Notes: generated from the letters alone by a model not told the origin. A stretch of DNA of 64,000 nt from Perna viridis (GCA_037379345.1 CM074511.1:46196862-46260861); one strand, 5' to 3'. Counted from the stretch's first letter, positions 49,495-63,579 are shown. Translations and numbers: made by a program.

Positions 49495-49514
49495 CGTCGA
49501 TAAATAAAATAGCG

Positions 49515-50344
49515 GGTTCCGGGTCGTTTCGCCCTTTTTTCCCTTCACCCTGGGTTCTTTCGCCCTGAGTTGTTTCGCCCTTTATGTGAGTTGTTTCGCC
49601 CTTTATGGTGGGTCGTTTCGCCCTTTCCTTATTAATGAGGAATTTCTCCTTATAAATATTATTTACTACTATTTTAGCCTTCGTTCTCGATTTATTTATT
49701 TATTTATTTATTTATCTGTTTATTTATTTATTTATTTAGAGAAAAAAAAAGATCGAAGATTTTGCTCTCTCTCGCTTTTATAATTCCCATGATCATGTTG
49801 TATTTTTAACCCTGTCATTTACTATGTAAACAGTTTGTTGTAACAATGTGCTAGTAATTGTGCTCTTATACTCATGAATTATTTAAATAAATGTTCAGGA
49901 CTTATATTAATCTCTTCTGTCATCACCATATATCACATTTATTCTCGAGGCCCTGCCGAAAAAGATATATAATGACATAATTGGTTATCAATATCTTCCA
50001 ATTTTCTCATTTCTCAATAAATATCTCTTGTGACATTGCCTCAGAATCAGCAACTGATGGGCTTTATCTGAAAGAAAAAGGAATACCAGTACAAGTATCT
50101 ATCAATTTAACAATTAGATCAACCCCTACTATACAAACATTCAAGTTTTTTTCACAGAATAAACATGTATTCTTACCTGTCACAACACAAGCCAATTAAA
50201 CACATGTATATCCAATGAGGGCGAAACGACCCTACAATAAGGGCGAAACGACCCTGCAGTAAGGGCGAAACAACCCGGACGAACGGGATAAAGGGCGAAA
50301 CAACGAGAGGGCGAAGGGGGAAAAGGGCGAAACGACCCGACGCC
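49515..50344. mobile_element. Foldback-type MITE (Mutator/Rehavkus-like) with subterminal tandem motifs
   Basis: About 110-125-bp terminal inverted arms built from repeated GTCGTTTCGCCCT / AGGGCGAAACGAC; GG...CC termini; 8-bp target duplication AAATAGCG (49507-49514) vs AAATGGCG (50345-50352); AT-rich non-coding interior. Confidence 0.8.
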
Positions 50345-50427
50345 AAATGGCGGCGCCCATGAAATTGTTTTGAAAAATCTGATACAGATTGAAAGATACA
50401 ATTTTTTCATAATATAAATGAAAAACT

Positions 50428-53400
50428 ATGAAAAAGGAAGGAAAACTTGAAGGGCAACGACCGTTTAAATTAGGTAACTTTCATAAAATGCGTGGTAAAT
50501 ACCATTTGAAAGGTTGGCATGTAAATTGTAACGGTTTTGAAAACTGAAGTGTCTTGGCTTACCGTCCGTGCGAGACCTGACAGGGTAGTCAAGGACGTTA
50601 AAAAAACCCTTAGTAGTAGTCTTGTCTTACTCAAGAAATATTGACGGAAGGTCAACGACGTCCTATATATGCAGATGCTCTCCAATAGGTATAACTCAAA
50701 ATAGTTCCAACAGAAGTGACGCATTTCAGATATGATGTAGTTAGGATACGTCCCCATGACTGGCGTGAGGGAATGAGAATATATGGAGTGTTACATTAAC
50801 ATTACTATGATGATGTATAGAGTTTGTTTTAACATTTAAGGCAGTTGCACAGCTTCCTGTGTTTTAGGAAGTCTTACATAATCCTGTTGATAGAAACAAA
50901 ATTGATATATAGAGTGCATTATCAACAATATCAATTACTTTTGTTATAAAAAAAAATTGTACTTGAGTGAAAATAGGTCTGTCCCTCATGGGCTTAGCCT
51001 AAAATTGTATTAGCTGCAGAACCATAACTCTTATGGTTCTTGGTCTGCAAAAAAACACCATAAGGTCCCGGAAAGGTTTATTCACAAGTCATAATAAACT
51101 CATAATAACAAAAAAATAAGGATTGGACTCCCATTATCTCATTCAGCAGTTGAATTTTACCATTTCATAGATAAACTTGTAAATTTTTGTAAATTATAAA
51201 AAATCATCCATTTTTATGCTGGGTGTAAAATGAATTACACTGTCAGGCCTTTCATTAAAAGGTGGTTCTAGGTTCTTTCAACCTTCTGTACTACTGAAAG
51301 GTACCTCCAGAATACAAAATTTCATATTATGTTTATAAAAAAAAATTTTGAAAAGTACAATGTAACTCCTACAAAACCATAGTATAACCATAGGTACCAA
51401 TACTGGAAAAATTAATGAAACCTCTGCATTGTACTCAGGATAGAAGTAAAATTTCAACAAGTTAAACAGTTAATATCCAGTATTTATAACTCTAGGTGCA
51501 GAGAAAGTTAACTATCAGGAAAGGCCTCCAAATTTTGTCCAGATATTGGTACATGTAAATCATATTGAACAATGATATGTATACAGTGCTATTCATTTTC
51601 CTCATTTCGTTGTGGTGATACATGTATTTTGTAGTGTGCTCTTGAAATGTGTTGGCCTTAAAAATCCACTGAAAATAAGTAACTTTAGGAACTCTTTCTA
51701 CATAAAGACCTTATCTGTACTTGTGTTTAATATGAGATCAGGCTTGTCTTAAGAGGGACAGCAGCTTAAACATCATAAATATTGATAATTGTCAAGTTCT
51801 GAATTAGTTACTTATTCTGAATATTGTTGCTCTCAACGTTGAGCGTACAGTCTATTAAATTAGTATTATTGTCATCTAAGTCTCATAGGATTTTGCTTGC
51901 CTTTAAGAATTAATTTTAACGAGAGTGCCTGAGCCTTCTTCCACCAAGGTTACCAAATGTTAATAAAAGATATAGAAAATAATTGTATATTGACTAGAAA
52001 TAAAAACAATATATGGATGAGGCTTATAATTGGTGGAAAATGCAAGGCTCGCTGAGATTTGTGCCAAATTTGTACATCATTTTTATTTCTAGTCAGTATA
52101 CAGTTTTATTTTCTTAATACTTGAATCCTTATCATTTTTTAATCAAGTAATATTTTTATACGACATGTTTTTTTATATTTCTTCCCTACTTGTGGCCTCC
52201 GATAGTGACTCTACGATTAACAGGTATTTCATGCAAAGGTAGGAAGTTCCTTGGGCCCAAAGTGTTATATACTGTCAGTGACCGTATATCACCAATAAAT
52301 ATAGTCAACACGTTTTTGTTGCTCAAATAGAACAATTGCAGTATAAATATGAGTTGTTGGTTACCAATCTCAATAGATTTAAAGGGAGCTTGCTTACATA
52401 GCATATAGTCAAGAAAACTTGTTTATCAGTATGGCATATGATGATTGTGTAGATAAAATTAGAGTATGGAAAATTTGTTGCTATGATGTATTGCATATCT
52501 TTCCTTTAGAATTACAAGTATTGCTGAATGCTCACATAAAAATTGCATGAGTTTTTTAGACCTACAATGGAAATTTTCCATTATTATATGTCAACAAGTA
52601 AGGTTGGGAAAAAAATAGAATTTTCAAATAGACATTTTCATTATTATGACCTATCAAATAATATAACCTTTTTGTTTAAACATCAATGAAAATACTGTGT
52701 TACATTTTATTATTATTGTAGCTCACCAAACATTATGTATTAGGGCTATCAACTTTAACACAAGATCAGTTGCGGTAAGTATTATCATTAAGAGTGGCAA
52801 AAAGCTTCATGTTGATAGAAGTTATGGAATGGAATGATTTATTGTAATGACATACACCTCTTCAGTAAAACAAACGAAGACCATCAGATTGGATATTAAA
52901 TTGACTAAATTTGTCTTATGATAGAAACTTTTTGGAATGAATGAATAAGGCGTGTTTAATCTTATCAAATGTAACTCTTGTATCATTGAAAATGTATGCA
53001 TCTGTGTATAATGTATCAAACAATTTGTTTACAGGGCTATGTAGAGTTAGCTTTGCATCCATTGGTTCCTAATCTAAGAAGAGTTAAGATCAACAGTAGG
53101 CAATGCAATATCCTTTATCCGTACAATAATTGTACATATTCAGTGTTTTTAAATGTTTCCATGGGAAAACCGCTCATAAAGATTAACTATCCCACCAAAA
53201 ATTGCACTTACCCTGTGTGACAGGAAAATGAAATCCTAGAAAATTGGCAATGTTATCAAGAATTAAATTCTATGGGAAAAGATGAGATCAGTCAAGAAAA
53301 GAACACCATACATTTAATGTGTATGAACAAACAAGACTATTGATTGGTCAGGTTTAGGTAAGCTTTCATGTTTTTCTTAATCTTCTTGCTTACTTGCTTA

Positions 53401-56400
53401 TGCTGTGTTAAATTACATGAACTTCAAAAGAGCTTGGTAAGTAAAAGTTGTCAATTTTATCTTTAGTACTGATATACAAAGTATTTTATAGTTTGTGTTC
53501 TGTGGTCTCAATTTTCTTTTTTCTTAACTGGTTCTAAGAATTTACCATGTTAGTATCAATGAGCAATGGGAGGCCAGGTTTCTGTATAATGATCCATCAC
53601 TAGAGGTGTGTCAGGGAGATGGCAAACAGTAAGTGTAACATGAAAAGTGAATAATCAAGTAAAAACATGAAACTTAAAAATTGCTAAAGTCATCCCTCAG
53701 TGTCACTTCTGTAGCACACATAAAAAAATACAATTATAACATTAACTAATATAATAACACCTCAGTATGATTATCTACTCAAATATAAATAAATCTAGTA
53801 CAGACAAGTGATTATCAAATATCTTTTCAAAACCATTTTAGTTTACAGACATAAAGATATTTTGAATACCGGTAAATAAAGATAAAACCAAGTTCTGGTA
53901 TTCATTTTAGACGTAATCTGGATTATTTCCAAAACTTCCATTTAACATCAATGACATCAGTTGATCCAGATACTGGGAATGGAGAAGTTACCATCAGACT
54001 GCCACCTGAGACACACTCATTATTAGCAGGTAATACATTAGGTATTAGTCCATCCAAACTCTTAACATTCAAGATAATGTAAATCATTTATAACTTAGAA
54101 AAGGGACAGACTTGTTTTTTATCAGCTAAGGAAAGTTGTTTAAAAGAGTAATCAAGGGAACCAAGGTTATAGCGGTAATCAAAAGAATGTAATCCAGGGA
54201 CAAAGACCAGACATGGAAAACAGACATACACAACAAAGAACATAAAGTAACTAAAATCATACATACAAAGTAACAAAAGCAAATGAGCAACTTGGACTCC
54301 ACTAAAAACTGGGAGCAAAATATCATAATGTTTTTGCTTGCAGCCTTGTACATCTGTGATCAGATGAAATGAAAAGGGAAAACAGCTGATTGTGTTTCAG
54401 TATAAACTTTTAATTTGAATTTTATTGTTTACATTAATGTTCTCTTATGTTTATACTGTTTTAAAATACAGTGGTTGAATATTCTTTGTCAACTGAAATT
54501 ATGTTTAAGTCAATGTATAACTTATCTATAAATTGTTTGTAGAAATGCGTCCAATCAAACTATGTATAGAGTTTTCTCTGGAGCAACCAAAAGGAGGTAT
54601 CCATTTTGTTACACCAAACATGGAGGGTACCCCAGCAGAGAGATGCTGTCATTTGTTTACATACACCAGTCTGTTTGAAAATTCATCCAGGTTTGTATGC
54701 AACTTCTATTTTGGCTTACCTTGACTAATGGTCTATATGAACTTTCATCGTCACTTGGCATCCATCATCATCATTGCCCTTTGTTGTCAACTTAAAAAAA
54801 TAGTACTCTAAAACCAATGTTAGAATTACTATGAAACTTTACATATTTATCTTCATCCCGTCTAGTATAATTTTGCCTTGTTTGACCAATTGATTTCCAT
54901 TTACATTTGTATATAAATTTTTAAAATAAGTATCTCATTGGGAATTCCTGGTTTAACCACTTTAAAGAAAACCCTGACAATAGGGATATACATGTAGGAT
55001 GGCCACCATAGCTTAAATGGAATATAGAGATTATTCAGCAGCTTTTATAAATTACTTAAATTTGAACTAGAGTGAACATACCTATTTGGTTACTAATTTT
55101 CGAAACATTTTATGTACCAATTTTAAAGTTATGCCCCTTGAAACACTGTTTTTTCATACCACTGATTGATTTTTTGGAGGTTATGACACCTGCTGTTTTG
55201 GAATAATGGGAAAGTAGCTTTAATACAAGCATTTTTGATTCACCAGACAATAAGTGGAGTATGAATGTATTGATGTCTATGAAGTTGTAACATAAGGTTC
55301 CATGTTACAAAGTAGGTTAGAGTTGATTTTGTGGATAATGGCTTTAACTGTAAAAACAGGCAAAAAAATTGTTTTTGTTACTTGTTATCAATAATTTAAT
55401 TATAAAATGAAATAGTATCACAGTTGTGCCAAAAAAGAAAGGTTGGAATTTGCATTAAATGTGTAAACTAGAACTAGATAAATGATAAGTATATATTAGA
55501 AGAATTATCTAGACTACTGCAAAGGGATTACTTTGCATTTATTAATCACATGGTAATTACTTTGTGGTTATTGTACATGTACTATTAATAGGTTGTCTTT
55601 ATAATTTACCCAGGATGTGGTTCCCTTGTGTAGACTCCTACTCTGAGCCATGTACATGGAAGATAGAGATAACAACAGAAATGAACATGACAGCTGTATC
55701 ATGTGGTGACCTTATAGAGGTCGTACAGATGCCAGACAGAAAGAGCAAAACATTTCATTACTTCCTGTCGACTCCAACAGCAGCTCCTAACATTGCCATG
55801 GCAGTTGGGTAGGTTTATTTTTTTCATTATGTAGACTTTAAAAGAATTTTGCCTTTAACCATTTTGGACTGCTTACTTGTCAAAGTTGTTTTTACTATAA
55901 CATTACAATCTTCAATGCAAAATATTTTTAATATTATAAAAAACACACATTAGTTAATACGAAGAAACTAAGAAATCCAGAAACTCCACACTAAGCAATC
56001 ATCTTACATACCCTGGATTTTATTATTCTCACTGCTTTTAGAATAGGTACCTACATGTAACATATATTGTATTGATAAATGAATCTTTTTTGTAGTTTCT
56101 AGTAACTAAGAACAATTATTCAGCATATAAACTGACAGTGAATCTTAGTGAATGATTAAATATCAAAATATGAAGCCTTTGTTTCTTTTTATAATGTTTT
56201 TTGTAAAAATTTCCAATATAACAGAAGGGTTTTAAGATTATTTACATGTATAATAACTATATGCCCCAAAAATCAGTTTCACATATTTAAAAATTAACAT
56301 GGAACTACAGTTAACAAAAAGAGAAAACTCCGTGCTATTTTTGTGCTAGTTTTCATATATTTCAGTTATGCTTAGTTGAACTTTTCTTTCAGGCCATTTG

Positions 56401-59400
56401 AGATTGTAGTGGATCCTAACATGCATGAAGTCACACACTTCTGTTTGCCCCACCTAACAGAAATTCTAAGGCATACGACAGGATATATCCACGAGGTAAT
56501 TGTTGTTAACTTTAAAATGTTCTACATGTGACCCTAAGTCTGGTATTGATATGTAAAGGGTTGTTACTTAAGAAAGAAAAAAAATCTTGCAAATATTCCA
56601 AAGTCAGATTAGTATTAGGCTCAATTAGAAAGCTGGTTTTGACCTATTATGTACAAGAAACCTGGCATCAATTGCACAAAAGTCATAAGTGTAGAGTTGA
56701 TCGTAAGTAATGACATCATAACAGAAATAGCATTGTTACATCATAACTTATGATCAATTTTACACTCACGACTTTGTGTGAAATTGACACCTGCTGTATT
56801 GAAAAACATTTTTGCTTAGGGAGGTGAATGGTTTTGCCAAATTAGGAATCGATTTTTAAAAAATTATCTGTTTATCAAATAAGTTAATCTGCAAGACTCC
56901 TTTATAAAAACAAGTCAGGATTTAAAATCACCACATGTCATCACTTACTACCTTTTTCCAGGCCTTTGAGTTTTTAGAAGAATCAATGTCAAGTAGATAT
57001 CCGTACTCGTGTTATAAACAAGTGTTCGTAGATGAAAGTTTCCAGGATGTTTCACCATTTGCCACAATGACAATATTTAGGTAAAATTTCATTGCATGAA
57101 CTTAATTTCACATTGAAGTTGTGTTAAATTTGAAATACAAATACATAAATATTTTGAGATAAAATTCACATAGGTTGGTTCATTTGCATTGCCAATATCT
57201 TCCAGTGTGCAAGAAATATTTTTTTAATGGAATATTTTGATGGAACCAATCTAGACCAGCAAAAACATGATAACATTTTATGTTTATGCAAGTTTCTTAT
57301 ATCATTTTAACAAAAAAATATTTTAAATATACATTTTATCATTGAACCATGTACTTATAGTGATGGAATTATGAATGCAATTTGCCAATGTTGTGATTTA
57401 ATGTTAAATCTGAGTACACCTATGATTTAGAACTACTATATTGCAGCACTAATTTACTCCACTCTTCACGGATCATTGACCAGACTATTGAAACTCGATC
57501 TCTCATGTCAGCAGCTGTTGCCCATCAATTCTTTGGTTGTTTTTTATCCATTGGAAGCTGGTGAGCTTGATTTGGATATTTGAATTTGATGCAGTATTAT
57601 TTTCGTCTGTGAATAGTGAAAATTAAAAATGTAGACCAAAACTTTACTAGATTAAGTTACAATGATATGACAACATTTGTCAATTTGAGTAATCTTTTGA
57701 TTCCATGAAGCTCTGCCTAATGTGCTAGAATTTTTACAGACTTAAGTATTATGCATTTTCACTATGTCAAAGTATACTATACTTGTTTTTTCTATACATT
57801 ACGCCTAACTTATATTTGCTTGTTTTGTTTTACTTGATTTTGCACTCTTCTACATTTTTACCAGGGCTGACGCATGGCTGACATTGGGGATATCAAGTTA
57901 TTTATCTGGTTTGTTTGTCAAGAGCAAGTTTGGTAATAATGAATACAGATATATGATGTCTAAGGTACATTTTTGTGATTCACTTATACATAGTTAAAAG
58001 AATTTAAAATTTAAGCGAAGCTATTTTTTTATTATTATTTTGGTAGATTACAAGGTTATGATCCTAAAACCTTGCTGTGAATTGACTGGCTACAACTTTA
58101 CTATTGATTTTAGGCACCATGTACAACTATTAAGATAGTAAAAACCATGTTGTCAGCTAGTTTGTTTGTTGTAAGTTTTAGGGTTTATTGTTGAAGAAAT
58201 TAATTTGAAATAAATACTGTAATCTGATTGGTTAAAATAATTTTGTTATATCTCAATGGATAAAAAAATATTGACATGCCCCTATTCAGTTAAATTCAGA
58301 GCTACTTTTCTCATTTTTAAAGATAAAAATATGTTTTAAAATTAATTTATAAGAATTGGCAATAATAATTATTTTGTTTATTGAATAATAACATAGATTC
58401 TCTATGTGCATATTTTGTTTATTGCATTTCGTGCAATAAACAATATCCACATGGAAAATTTATGTTATTTTTCAGTAGACAAAATTTTTATTATTGCCAA
58501 TTCTTAATTGATGATTCTTATATAATCATTTGAAGTAGATTTTGTAGTGTGTTTAGTATTAATTATTGAATGTTTTGTATATTTCGGAAAAAAAAACATG
58601 CAGTATATGTATTTGTACTAGGTATAAGTCTTTAACAGAATCTGAAAATATAAACAACAGTACATGTTTTACAGATGATGAAAGAAGTACAAGACTATGA
58701 ACATAGAGTTGGTGGTATAGTACTAGATCCTTCAGCCAAACAAGGAACACATCATTTCTCTGTCTGGCATAGACAGCTACTTTCTCCAAAATACTTTGAA
58801 ATTTTCCAGAAGAAGTCTCATCTTATTATGAGAATGTTTGAAATGAGAATTGGACAGCAGCTTCTCATTCAGGTGTATATTACTTGTGTTTTTATGACAG
58901 ATTAGGTTTTTTGGGCATTAATTTGAGGAACTATATAATTTCTATTCAAAACCTTAAAAGAATTTTTCTTCTTTAAAAGAATTAAGCAGAATGTAACCTG
59001 TATAATATTTGATAAAATGTGTGCTTTCAGGTGCCAGTAGGATTAGTCATATTTTTTTTAAAAAGATTTAAACTTTTTGAAGTGGTACAAAAGTAAATGG
59101 ATTATTTTTCAGGTACTGAACAAGTTATTAGCTCTAGCTATATCGTCAGCGCAACAGAAGTTCCTTGCCAACACTTGGGGAAACATGTTACTGTCCACAG
59201 CTTCAGTATGTATTCAGTTTGTTGTCATGATGGGTTGTATTAGGGTTTTATGGATTTTCTACCATTCAAAACCAGACATGCAGTAGTTGGCTACTTCAAA
59301 GTTCTACAATATGATGCATAGTTATCTGAACTTTCTATTTTGTGGTATATTCAAAGTTCTACAATATGATGCATAGATATCTGAACACTCTATTTTGTGG

Positions 59401-62400
59401 TATATTCAAAGTTCTACAATATGATGCATAGTTATCTGAACACTCTTTTGTGGTATTACCAAACTTATTATAGTATAAAAAGTAATTTTTATACTTTTGA
59501 AGTTGGGAACCCATTCTTATGAATTTACAGAATCGCACCATTAGACTTATAAGCCCCTTGTATACCATGTTATTATGAACAGTTTTAAGTTTAATTGAGG
59601 AATGACTATTACTAATATCATTCTCATAGGTGTAGGACTTTTATTTTGGTTATGCCTATTATGTATATAGTCTACATTGTGTAAATGCGAAAAACCAAAA
59701 TTAATGAGAAATTTGTTTATTGAAGTCATTACTTATAAATAACCTTAAAACAAATTTATATATTTGTTTCTGTTATTAACAATAATGGCTAAACTACTAA
59801 TTGTGAAGGACATACAGAGTAACTTAAATAAAGAAGTATCAACCCACGTTATATTTTTGTTCATTGACAAATGAAAACTTTTTCGACCAATCAAATAACA
59901 CATTTGTTGAATTTATGTTACTCTTCTGTTCATTATGCACCATGTGGTTACATAGGTTGCTGTTTATACTCAGTGAGTACAACATATAACATAAGAAACG
60001 TTTGACTTTCACTTTTATTACAGTTCACCAAGATAATATCAACAGTCACTGGGAAAGACATTCAGCCATTTTTAGATTTGTGGGTGTATCCTTATCTTAT
60101 CAATGAACATTCAGAGGAAATGCACTGGTATTTGAGATATTTGTTATCTTGATTGGCTGTAACTCTAATATTGTATACAAGTAAAATTATGTTAATGACG
60201 ATATATTTTGATCTAATTTCCAAATAGTTTTCTGGTTAGCTAGGTCTCCTTTAGCAAATTAGGTTACTTTGTCTAACCTGGTTTGGTACTGTCAGTTTTT
60301 ATCCACATGCCCAATTATGGTCGGCAAAGACACAACAAAGTATTCAGCTTCAAAGAAGTGTCACTATACATGTACCTTAACTTTATCCCAGATCACAGAG
60401 TGGATGCGCTCGTTTCTTTGGAAGTTTTATTTTTAACAGAAAGAGAAATGTGGTTGAGTTAGAAATCAAACAAGATCTGAGTGCCAAGGGAGCTTTAAAA
60501 TATGTGGTGAGTTCACTTGTATTTTTTTTTTTCTGACAGCTGAAAGATGGTTAAAAAATTAAGTATATCAGAACATAATAGTGAATACTCTACTTGATTT
60601 GTGAGGTTCACTGTAAGATAGATTTCTGTACATGTAGTTTGTTCTAATAGTAGGGTCAAAAGTAGAACATGTTGCAACAGTGAAAAGTTATAGACTTATA
60701 TTTTTGTAAGTATTTAATACATTCAGTTCACTCAGATTAGTATCTGCTTTACTAGGATATGGATGTGAATGTACGAACCAGTTTAAGACTTTTTTTCTAT
60801 AAAAATTAAATGATCAGAAAATTCTCATTTGAAAATTGTGTTGAATATTTTATTGCAGGGTCCTTTGACAGTCACCATTCAAGAACTTGATGGCTCTTTC
60901 AACCACACTTTCAAGATAGAGGAAAATAAAACCAAGTTTGACATTACATGCCATTCCAAAAGCAGGAGGTAGGAATACTGTGTTGTTCATACATATAATC
61001 ATTTGTTGCACTGTACAGACAAAAATTAATTTTATTTAGTTAGAGATCATCTCAGAGATGTTCTAGATGAAACCATTATTCCTAATCATTCTAAATTTTT
61101 ATCATGGTGAAGTAAGTTCCTTCATGTCTCTGTGGAATTTAAAATTTATATCTAATGAAGAATGTACTGGGCATAACTATTGGCAGCATGCAATCTTATC
61201 TATGCATTATACACATTGTACCTACCTTAAGCTATTATAACTTTGTAGGAACAAGAAGAAAAAGATACCTCTTGTGACAGGTGAAGAAGTGGATATGGAT
61301 CTGAGTGCTATGGAGTAAGATATTTCCTGTTATGTGTTAAGTGTTAATTATGTTTTATAGTTAGTGGTGCAGTGCTAATTTCTTTCTTTAACCGACTTAT
61401 TCCAATTATATTGCCATTAGTATGTGAATGTTGCAAGAATTAGAGCTTTTACTTTGATTTTGATTCATTTTTTATTTATTTCTTATCTTCATGTTGCATT
61501 ATGGGTATTCATTTTTTTTACTGGATCTTTCATTGGATTATTTTCAGTGCTGATTCTCCAGTGTTGTGGTTACAGATTGATCCAAAATTAGAACTTCTGC
61601 GTCAGGTGACATTTGAACAACCAGACTATATGTGGCAATATCAACTCAGATATGAAAGGGATGTTGTTTCACAAAAGGAGGTAAGTGTTTTTGCCAACTA
61701 CCAAGTTTTTTTTACAGAATTACTGATTCTTTTTTCTATTTGACACTAATACATACGGTTAGATGTAGTATAATAGTATTTAATATCATAAATTACATGT
61801 ATTTATCATACTTTTACCATATACATTTTCTTGTATTTCACCTTAGTTTGCCAATTTTTAGCTCTGATTGAAGGTCAATGTGATGAGAAAGTTGAACAAA
61901 ATACACTAACTTTACATTTTGGTTCTTTAGAATAACAATTAGTTCTCTACACAGGTATCAGTTTTAGATACATTGTAGGTTTCTTCAAGTGAAACAGCAT
62001 TAGATGTACTTCTATTTACACAGGGTACATATTGTGTGTGTCCTTAAAGGCTTATATTGTGAAATTTTTGTAGGCTATTGTTGCTTTGGAACATTACCCT
62101 TCACCAGCCACAAGGAAAGCATTGACTGATGTACTAGAGAATGAGCATTGCTTTTATAAAGTTAGAATTGATGCAGCTAGGTGTTTGGCAAAGGTAAGGC
62201 AATGTTAACTTTGTTCTATCATAATAGAAAAAGTTAGAATGGAGGGCAACATATTGAATACTGTGAAAATACTTTAATTCATGGATACCAATTTTCGTGG
62301 ATTTAGGAAGAAACACATGCTCGTGGGTTCTTGAATTCATTGTTAAGAGGTTTTCAGTATACACATCAATGGAAATCTCCTTTTTTTGTGGAACCAAATT

Positions 62401-63579
62401 TCGTGGTTTAGGTTACCCACGAAAACCCCAAAAATTGGTGACCCACAAACAAGAGAACTTTTACATTTATCAAATATAAAATGGACAAAGACATATGATT
62501 AATTTTTGCAATGCCATGGAAATTTTCAGTCAAGTAATATTATATAGTTATTGTGATAACAATGCAATCATATTGTTTGCAGTAGTAAACATTGCAATAA
62601 TTTCTGGATAATGTAATGTGTCACTCATTGAGTATTGCAATACAGCCATGAAAATAAGGTTTAACTTTCAGTAGCTTTATCAGGTTACCCTACTGGTCAA
62701 TACTAGAATCGAAATAAATCATTGGTGCCAATATCTATGCGTATCCTTGCAGATACAGTCAAACCTATCTTTAGTGAACTTCCAAGGGAGCACAAACTCA
62801 CGGTCACATAAGACAGGTGGTCTTTAGATACAGATTAATTTAACATGAAATGCACAACATAGGGATATTTTAATCATAGTCTTTTAAAATAGGTTTTGCT
62901 GTCTACAGACGGTTGCTAAGACAGGCTATATTGTCCTAAAAATAGTTGAATTATGATGTAAAAGTTCCTTGGTTTAAGTAATAAATTACAGAAACTCAAT
63001 TTTATCATTGTTTTACTGCAGTCTAGCTATTTATGTCCCTTGAAAAAATGAAGTTTCAGTGTTTTATTTTGATTCTAATAGCACTAGTGTCTTAATTATT
63101 TTTACGAAGCGCAGCCTGTGTGTTGCAAGTTATAGTGACTGCTATGGGGCAAAATAGTGACGCTTGTAAAATTAGGTAAAACTTATCTTTGACATCAGAA
63201 TTAAGACTGTCATACGATGACATAATCACATTGGTCACATGTTAATTAAAGTTTTAGCACAGTTATGGTCTAAAGACCCTTTAAGCATGTAATATTAAAA
63301 TTAAACATATTATTTTGAGGTATAGTAGCTTGGTTTGGTGTAGCAACAAAAAAAAGAAGTAAAGCAGTTTTTTACGACTGAGTTCTCTATATTTAACATT
63401 TGAAAAAAAATCTAACAGTCAATAATTCATTTTTACAGGTTGCTAACTCTATGGTGACTTCCTGGGCAGGACCCCCAGCCATGATGACAATTTTCAGAAA
63501 GATGTTTGGATCTCATTCTTGTCCAGCTATTATAAGACAAAACAACTTTACAAATTTCCAGCATTACTTTCTTCTGAAT
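50428..63579 (+). CDS. TAF2: TFIID subunit 2 (TAF2), 3'-partial, 20 coding exons
   Basis: Exons: 50428-50473 ([15 protein letters not shown]), 52722-52774, 53035-53107, 53538-53628, 53911-54029, 54543-54690, 55614-55808, 56393-56495, 56962-57080, 57447-57560, 57865-57964, 58675-58872, 59113-59205, 60024-60085, 60392-60506, 60859-60968, 61249-61314, 61548-61680, 62074-62193, 63439-63579. Translation gives TAF2 signatures [83 protein letters not shown]. The gene continues beyond the window. Confidence 0.96.
51973..52113. repeat. Palindromic element in TAF2 intron 1
   Basis: AGAAAATAATTGTATATTGACTAGAAATAAAAA pairs with TTTTTATTTCTAGTCAGTATACAGTTTTATTTTCT. Confidence 0.7.
53108..53537 (+). other. 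U12-type intron of TAF2 with AT-AA termini
   Basis: 5' site ATATCCTT; branch site TTCTTAAC at 53521-53528; only a 3' boundary after ...TTCTAA restores the frame (QC-R-IYHV). Confidence 0.8.
54140..54320 (-). repeat. Nin-domain SINE-like fragment
   Basis: Reverse strand reads CCCAGTTTTTAGTGGAGTCCAAGTTGCTCATTTGCTTTTG, resembling the mollusc Nin core (recognised from memory). Confidence 0.4.
54707..55150 (+). mobile_element. Degenerate HINE-like copy in a TAF2 intron
   Basis: TTTTGGCTTACCTTG...TCACTTGGCATCCATCATCATC...TTATGCCCCTTGAA resembles 6045-6120 and the internal unit. Confidence 0.5.
59295..59457. repeat. 3 x 55-bp tandem repeat in a TAF2 intron
   Basis: TTCAAAGTTCTACAATATGATGCATAG(T/A)TATCTGAAC at 59295, 59350 and 59405. 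Confidence 0.92.
60086..60391 (+). other. U12-type GT-AG intron of TAF2
   Basis: 5' site GTATCCTT; branch site CCTTAAC at 60375-60381, 10 nt before the intron end; restores W-V-SQSG. Confidence 0.9.
62261..62465. mobile_element. TA-CTGT type MITE fragment
   Basis: TA|CTGTGAAAAT... with repeated ACCAA(A/T)TTTCGTGG and inverted CCACGAAAA...AAAATTGGT. Confidence 0.55.
62756..62933. mobile_element. Tc1/mariner(pogo)-type MITE
   Basis: TA|CAGTCAAACCT...AGACAGGCTATATTG imperfect terminal inverted repeats. Confidence 0.5.

Follow-up and report, generated by a model that had tools for sequence, protein, structure and literature searches.

Intron 3 of the Perna viridis TAF2 gene is a real intron that is spliced at AT..AA ends, as confirmed by RNA reads across its junction. 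It spans positions 53108..53537 on the + strand of the window, the 64-kb stretch of DNA analyzed as a whole, and is a phase 1 intron of 430 nt with U12-type signals. That this real, in-frame AT-AA intron is removed constitutively by the minor (U12) spliceosome is very probable, and the intron most likely belongs, as an ordinary example, to a rare class of minor introns that is already known. With two rival acceptors within 3 nt, this read-confirmed natural AT-AA intron offers a small and clean case for testing whether the minor spliceosome chooses a 3' end by distance or by the base at -3. No new mechanism follows from it unless data obtained with NMD blocked show regulated use of the adjacent AG.

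The TAF2 gene sits on G000:C1 of the 723-Mb P. viridis genome. Its first 20 exons extend over 50428..63579 (+), and the gene continues beyond the window. A 20-exon model using the AT..AA junction has 733 codons, is free of stops, and matches TAF2 of Mytilus galloprovincialis in a gapless alignment with 658 of 732 residues identical; Pfam TAF2 domains are present in the aligned Mytilus protein. TAF2 is single-copy because exon 7 has one match in a search of the whole G000 genome, and a pseudogene or second TAF2 copy is ruled out by the same single match. Exon 3 (53035..53107, +), supported by joints and contig pieces, encodes GYVEL...SRQC plus the first base of an Arg codon and ends CAA TGC A at 53107. 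Exon 4 (53538..53628, +) starts with GAATTTAC at 53538, and its protein ends in ...GKQ.

Splice signals and RNA support of intron 3

The donor ATATCCTTT at 53108 agrees with the U12-type 5' splice site consensus RTATCCTT. The full 5' splice site, ATATCCTTTA (53108..53117, +), is recognized from sequence and pairs with the U6atac and U11 RNAs of the same genome. The branch site TTTTTCTTAACT (53517..53529, +) contains the motif TTCTTAAC at 53521-53528, with the predicted branch A at 53527 (or 53526), and the intron ends in TGGTTCTAA at 53537. Only TGGTTCT lies between the branch site and the acceptor, with no polypyrimidine tract, as in U12-type introns. The G000 genome carries minor snRNA loci for U12 (two), U11 (two), U6atac (two), and U4atac (one), all above Rfam cut-offs. 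If one A is bulged, base pairing of the branch site with the U12 snRNA of L005 extends over 11 contiguous pairs, one of them G-U. The U12 donor and branch site named in the preliminary description are thus borne out by the sequence and by pairing with the mussel's own U11, U12, and U6atac, and removal of intron 3 would be expected to depend on these three RNAs. Within the intron, the stretch 53176-53250 is matched at 80-87% by six further sites in G000 and is a small repeat remnant.

Removal by the major (U2) spliceosome or by a hybrid, in the manner of the U2-type AT-AC intron 1 of human TAF2, is very unlikely. Human and fly TAF2 carry a U2-type AT-AC intron, and a T-rich run lies directly upstream of the intron 3 branch site, both of which would suit such a pathway. 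The donor ATATCCTTT, however, is unlike the ATAAGT of intron 1 at a fish-like locus, 11 positions of the branch site pair with U12, and a pyrimidine tract is lacking between branch site and acceptor. U2-type introns of the AT-AC II kind have an ATAAGT-like donor and an AC end, as in intron 1 of the fish-like locus L022, whereas intron 3 has the donor ATATCCTT and ends in AA.

RTATCCTT occurs six times and TYCTTRAC five times on the + strand of the 64 kb, which corresponds to a chance rate of about 9e-5 for a single position and 7e-4 for a span of 9 positions. A genome-wide search for donor, branch site, and AA end with a spacing of 60-90 nt gave 42 matches versus 39 in a reversed control. Because this pattern is at chance level, it cannot be used to count AT-AA introns across the genome. 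The motifs alone are insufficient, so the claim for intron 3 is carried by its exon context and by the reads.

Two raw stranded RNA runs from one study, X21 and X22, of which 19% and 24% of the reads were covered, contain the joint 53106>53537, which has a one-letter ambiguity and equals 53107>53538. It is present in 13 reads of X21 (7 starts) and 12 reads of X22 (11 starts). Contigs from three other studies, X1, X5, and X13, which are presumed to be RNA, carry the same 430-nt joint. Two placements fit this joint equally, AA..TA and AT..AA, and AT..AA is chosen because the U12 donor fixes it. The AT-AA ends and the exact junction that had been proposed from sequence are therefore confirmed by 25 raw reads and by the contigs of three more studies. 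Read depth is 0 at 53141-53490 in both runs, giving a rough bound on retention of 3% at low depth. Introns 2 and 4 likewise have depth 0 in X21 and X22; these neighboring GT-AG introns are spliced out.

The preliminary description had also called for raw reads against an assembly error. That the AA comes from faulty assembly, or from a private allele at what is otherwise an AT-AC site, is extremely improbable. X18, the only DNA-like contig, may be the source of this assembly, and the last intron base lies outside the RNA read coverage, which would allow such an error to pass. Against this, X18 has a depth of 103.5, agrees with the window at both splice sites, and differs from it at two other places (52709 and 53121).

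The intron position in relatives and its effect on protein models

An exon-4 peptide pattern was used to collect relatives, and 26 loci were found in metagenome contigs. Of these, 23 have a GT-AG intron whose 3' end falls precisely where exon 4 begins, in the identical codon and phase; this same-position GT-AG intron with minor-like signals is newly found here. The 23 loci (L011, L012, L014-L021, and L024-L036) are called annelid-like because the longest ones score best against Lamellibrachia and Capitella, and they probably represent one lineage. They hold 16 distinct acceptors, and both intron ends are visible in 14. Every visible donor (14/14) starts with GTATC, as GTATCTTT in six, GTATCCTT in five, and three single variants. 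The motif C[CT]TRAC is found in 16/16 distinct acceptors, 14-18 nt from the end and followed by an A-rich tail, and in 0/14 intron-2 acceptors used as a contrast set. The CTTRAC core stands without the upstream TTC. Together, core and A-rich tail may be a minor branch site that is specific to one lineage or in decay, and because the branch sites are weakened and lie 14-18 nt from the AG, the intron may be converting to the major type. The annelid-like intron thus resembles mussel intron 3 in its GTATC donor, its CTTRAC branch core, and the absence of a pyrimidine tract, whereas it differs in its GT-AG ends, its weaker donor and branch site, and its longer branch distance.

Intron 3 is missing in 3 of the 26 loci, namely L022 (fish-like), L023 (invertebrate), and L013. 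The first two keep introns 2 and 4, and L013 is intronless in the matched stretch. A second protein search with 25 matches added no cnidarian, plant, or vertebrate sequence. From these loci and the human tables, the position appears to be old, common to at least two phyla, present in G-type and A-type forms, and missing in some lineages. A switch of subtype in an old intron is the probable history of intron 3, with the terminal dinucleotides changed in one lineage. This adds to TAF2 an apparently old minor-intron position that has no entry in human lists, and it occurs in animals as both G-type and A-type.

AT-AA introns had been described beforehand as rare. Rarity is a matter of scale here: among non-canonical minor introns, no subtype is commoner than AT-AA, which makes up 1.117% (823) of conserved animal minor introns in the available part of Larue and Roy 2023. 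The accessible text of Sheth et al. 2006 (PMC1557818) lists 8 AT-AA introns, including human minor introns in RASGRP4, FLJ21106, and MSH3. According to the same text, splicing with AT-AN pairs is productive, mapping errors are frequent for such introns, and 14 of 24 human-mouse non-canonical pairs have switched subtype. Human AT-AA introns (ABHD18 and PIGB in addition to RASGRP4, FLJ21106, and MSH3) are like mussel intron 3 in having the ATATCCTTT donor, a U12 branch site, and a YAA end; they differ in belonging to another gene and another lineage. In the table rows available, human ABHD18 (NM_001319307.1) reads GTTCTTAAC...CAA/G, with the slash at the junction, and thus has the same branch core and the same AA/G layout with an AG one base on, and the PIGB intron has a similarly short branch distance. 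Retention of human AT-AA introns in these rows is 0.14-0.53, whereas none was seen for mussel intron 3, although the libraries are not comparable. The A-type (AT-AN) introns that require CENATAC, as given in the available part of de Wolf et al. 2021 (PMC8280824), are also alike in their AT-AN termini and U12 signals. No earlier description of mussel TAF2 intron 3 was found in the openly accessible papers searched.

Most TAF2 protein models of Mytilus have a faulty N-terminus, and intron 3 accounts for this. Nine of the 15 named models are broken at the intron 3 junction, and 0/15 are broken at intron 14, a minor intron with GT-AG ends. Four of the nine have an 8-residue deletion and five start downstream at a Met; they come from 5 of 7 annotation sets. 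The expectation that gene predictors would mis-annotate this intron is therefore supported by the Mytilus models. The pattern suggests that Mytilus intron 3 may also have non-GT-AG ends. On weaker evidence, models of Capitella, Saccoglossus, Tegillarca, and Pomacea also break at this junction. Among 33 named lophotrochozoan and deuterostome proteins surveyed, 5/32 were broken at the intron 3 junction versus 0-3 at 17 other junctions, a weak comparison in which some breaks come from generally poor models.

Acceptor choice and the proposed control of TAF2

All acceptors from 53530 to 53549 were translated. The acceptor in use is TAA (53535..53537, +), which lies 10 nt from the second A of the branch site, the predicted branch point, and 11 nt from the first. 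Joining at the AA ending at 53537 gives QC-R-IYHV in frame, as the preliminary description had stated, and both the translation and the stop-free 733-codon model agree with it. The adjacent AAG (53536..53538, +), 11 nt from the branch A, shifts the frame, also as described, and leads to a stop at codon 79 (window position 53601). The one AC nearby ends at 53545 and was rejected because it lies 18 nt past the branch A and is out of frame, which upholds the earlier statement that no suitable AC exists. A second in-frame AA, in GAA (53538..53540, +), had been missed earlier; its use would drop the Arg, and it was rejected with no joint listed there.

A comparison of reads at 53107>53538 and 53107>53539 had been suggested, and only the former was found, in the 25 raw reads. 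Joints were listed from three reads up, so that two or fewer reads per run could stay hidden, and at this threshold no other joint across intron 3 was listed in X21 or X22, the AG junction included. With 25 junction reads, use of the AG is below about 11% (95%) if there are none and below 29% if two reads per run are unlisted; NMD would remove the AG-spliced product, so these bounds may miss it.

The following order of events is proposed. U11 and U12 would bind ATATCCTT and TTCTTAAC, and the branch A would then set an acceptor window about 10-13 nt downstream. Within this window, TAA would likely be preferred over AAG and GAA because only TAA has a pyrimidine at -3. The accessible text of PMC3584512 describes U12 3' site choice as error-prone, with an optimum branch distance of 11-13 nt. 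Distance alone does not favor the AA because it lies at 10 nt and the AG at 11 nt. The 14 human A-type rows that do not end in AC (5 AT-AA, 5 AT-AG, and 4 AT-AT), which are among the first 26 and first 15 matches listed from the A-type table of PMC8280824, all have C or T at -3 (14/14). The pyrimidine is not absolute in AT-AC introns, where XPO4, IPO5, and E2F1 carry A at -3 in the same partial table. These rows suggest a role of the -3 pyrimidine in acceptor choice.

The preliminary description went further and proposed that competition between AA and AG could be a rate-limiting or NMD-coupled control point for TFIID. A regulated switch of this kind, in which AG splicing causes a frameshift and NMD and so tunes TAF2 levels, is decidedly unlikely. 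Its appeal lies in the AG itself, which is 11 nt away from the branch A and leads to termination at codon 79, and in the error-prone choice of U12 3' sites. Human A-type introns also have high basal retention in the available part of PMC8280824 (0.14-0.53 in the AT-AA rows), and the five Mytilus models that begin at a downstream Met could be explained by a frameshifted transcript. These models, however, are equally explained by aligners that force canonical ends. The two raw runs have neither a listed AG joint nor intronic depth, and the contigs of three more studies show the AA only, although contigs lose rare variants. AAG also lacks the -3 pyrimidine that is found in 5/5 of the available human AT-AG rows. 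Alternative splicing coupled to NMD would be expected to keep its pair of sites across species, and the AA/G layout is not found in the 23 annelid-like introns, which have a plain AG. The proposed control thus has no support in these data and is weakened by the lack of conservation and by the human precedent for the same layout, although NMD may hide a small share of AG use.

A broader scenario is decidedly unlikely. It holds that an ancient TAF2 minor intron was lost in vertebrates and became AT-AA in mussels, where it gained an out-of-frame AG, and that regulated decay hidden by NMD ties the TFIID supply to the accuracy of the minor spliceosome. On the favored reading of constitutive removal, drift plus the Arg codon is the simplest account of the AA and of the G after it, rather than a regulatory device.

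Other TAF2 introns and features of the locus

Mussel TAF2 has two minor introns, 3 and 14. Intron 14 (60086..60391, +) is U12-type with GT-AG ends and reads GTATCCTT ... CCTTAAC ... CAG; its predicted cDNA distance of 464 equals that in the X13 contig (464). The human TAF2 minor intron (chr8:119788905-119789591, GT-AG), in which AGCAGTGGGT is followed at the junction by the donor GTATCCTT, has the same position as mussel intron 14 and not that of intron 3. The human tables searched contain no A-type minor intron in TAF2, only the GT-AG minor intron and the U2-type AT-AC intron 1.

Intron 1 also differs between the species, being U2-type AT-AC in human and GT-AG in the mussel. The mussel intron (50474-52721) reads TTA G/GTAACT...TGTAG/CT CAC, with slashes at the junctions, and the annelid-like loci look alike. 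At the fish-like locus L022, intron 1 has AT..AC ends, TT/ATAAGT...CAC/A ACT CAC, and is displaced upstream by two bases, as if the intron had slid by 2 nt between the known U2-type AT-AC form and a canonical one.

Several minor observations were made along the gene. At position 50427, directly 5' of the TAF2 start codon, the RNA reads have A (7/7 and 8/8) where the window has T, and the X5 contig likewise has A. The mismatch may be an allele, an assembly error, or an upstream splice joint. Upstream of the start, clusters of the short repeat TTTCGCCC and its reverse complement GGGCGAAA face each other (49508-49630 and 50215-50345), which suggests an inverted-repeat element. A repeat in intron 5 (54139-54317) has an RNA depth more than 1000-fold on both strands, with a common loose end; it is likely a short element of high abundance, with transcripts arising from many copies. 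In intron 13, a unit of about 55 nt is repeated imperfectly in tandem, with three copies at 59287-59450.
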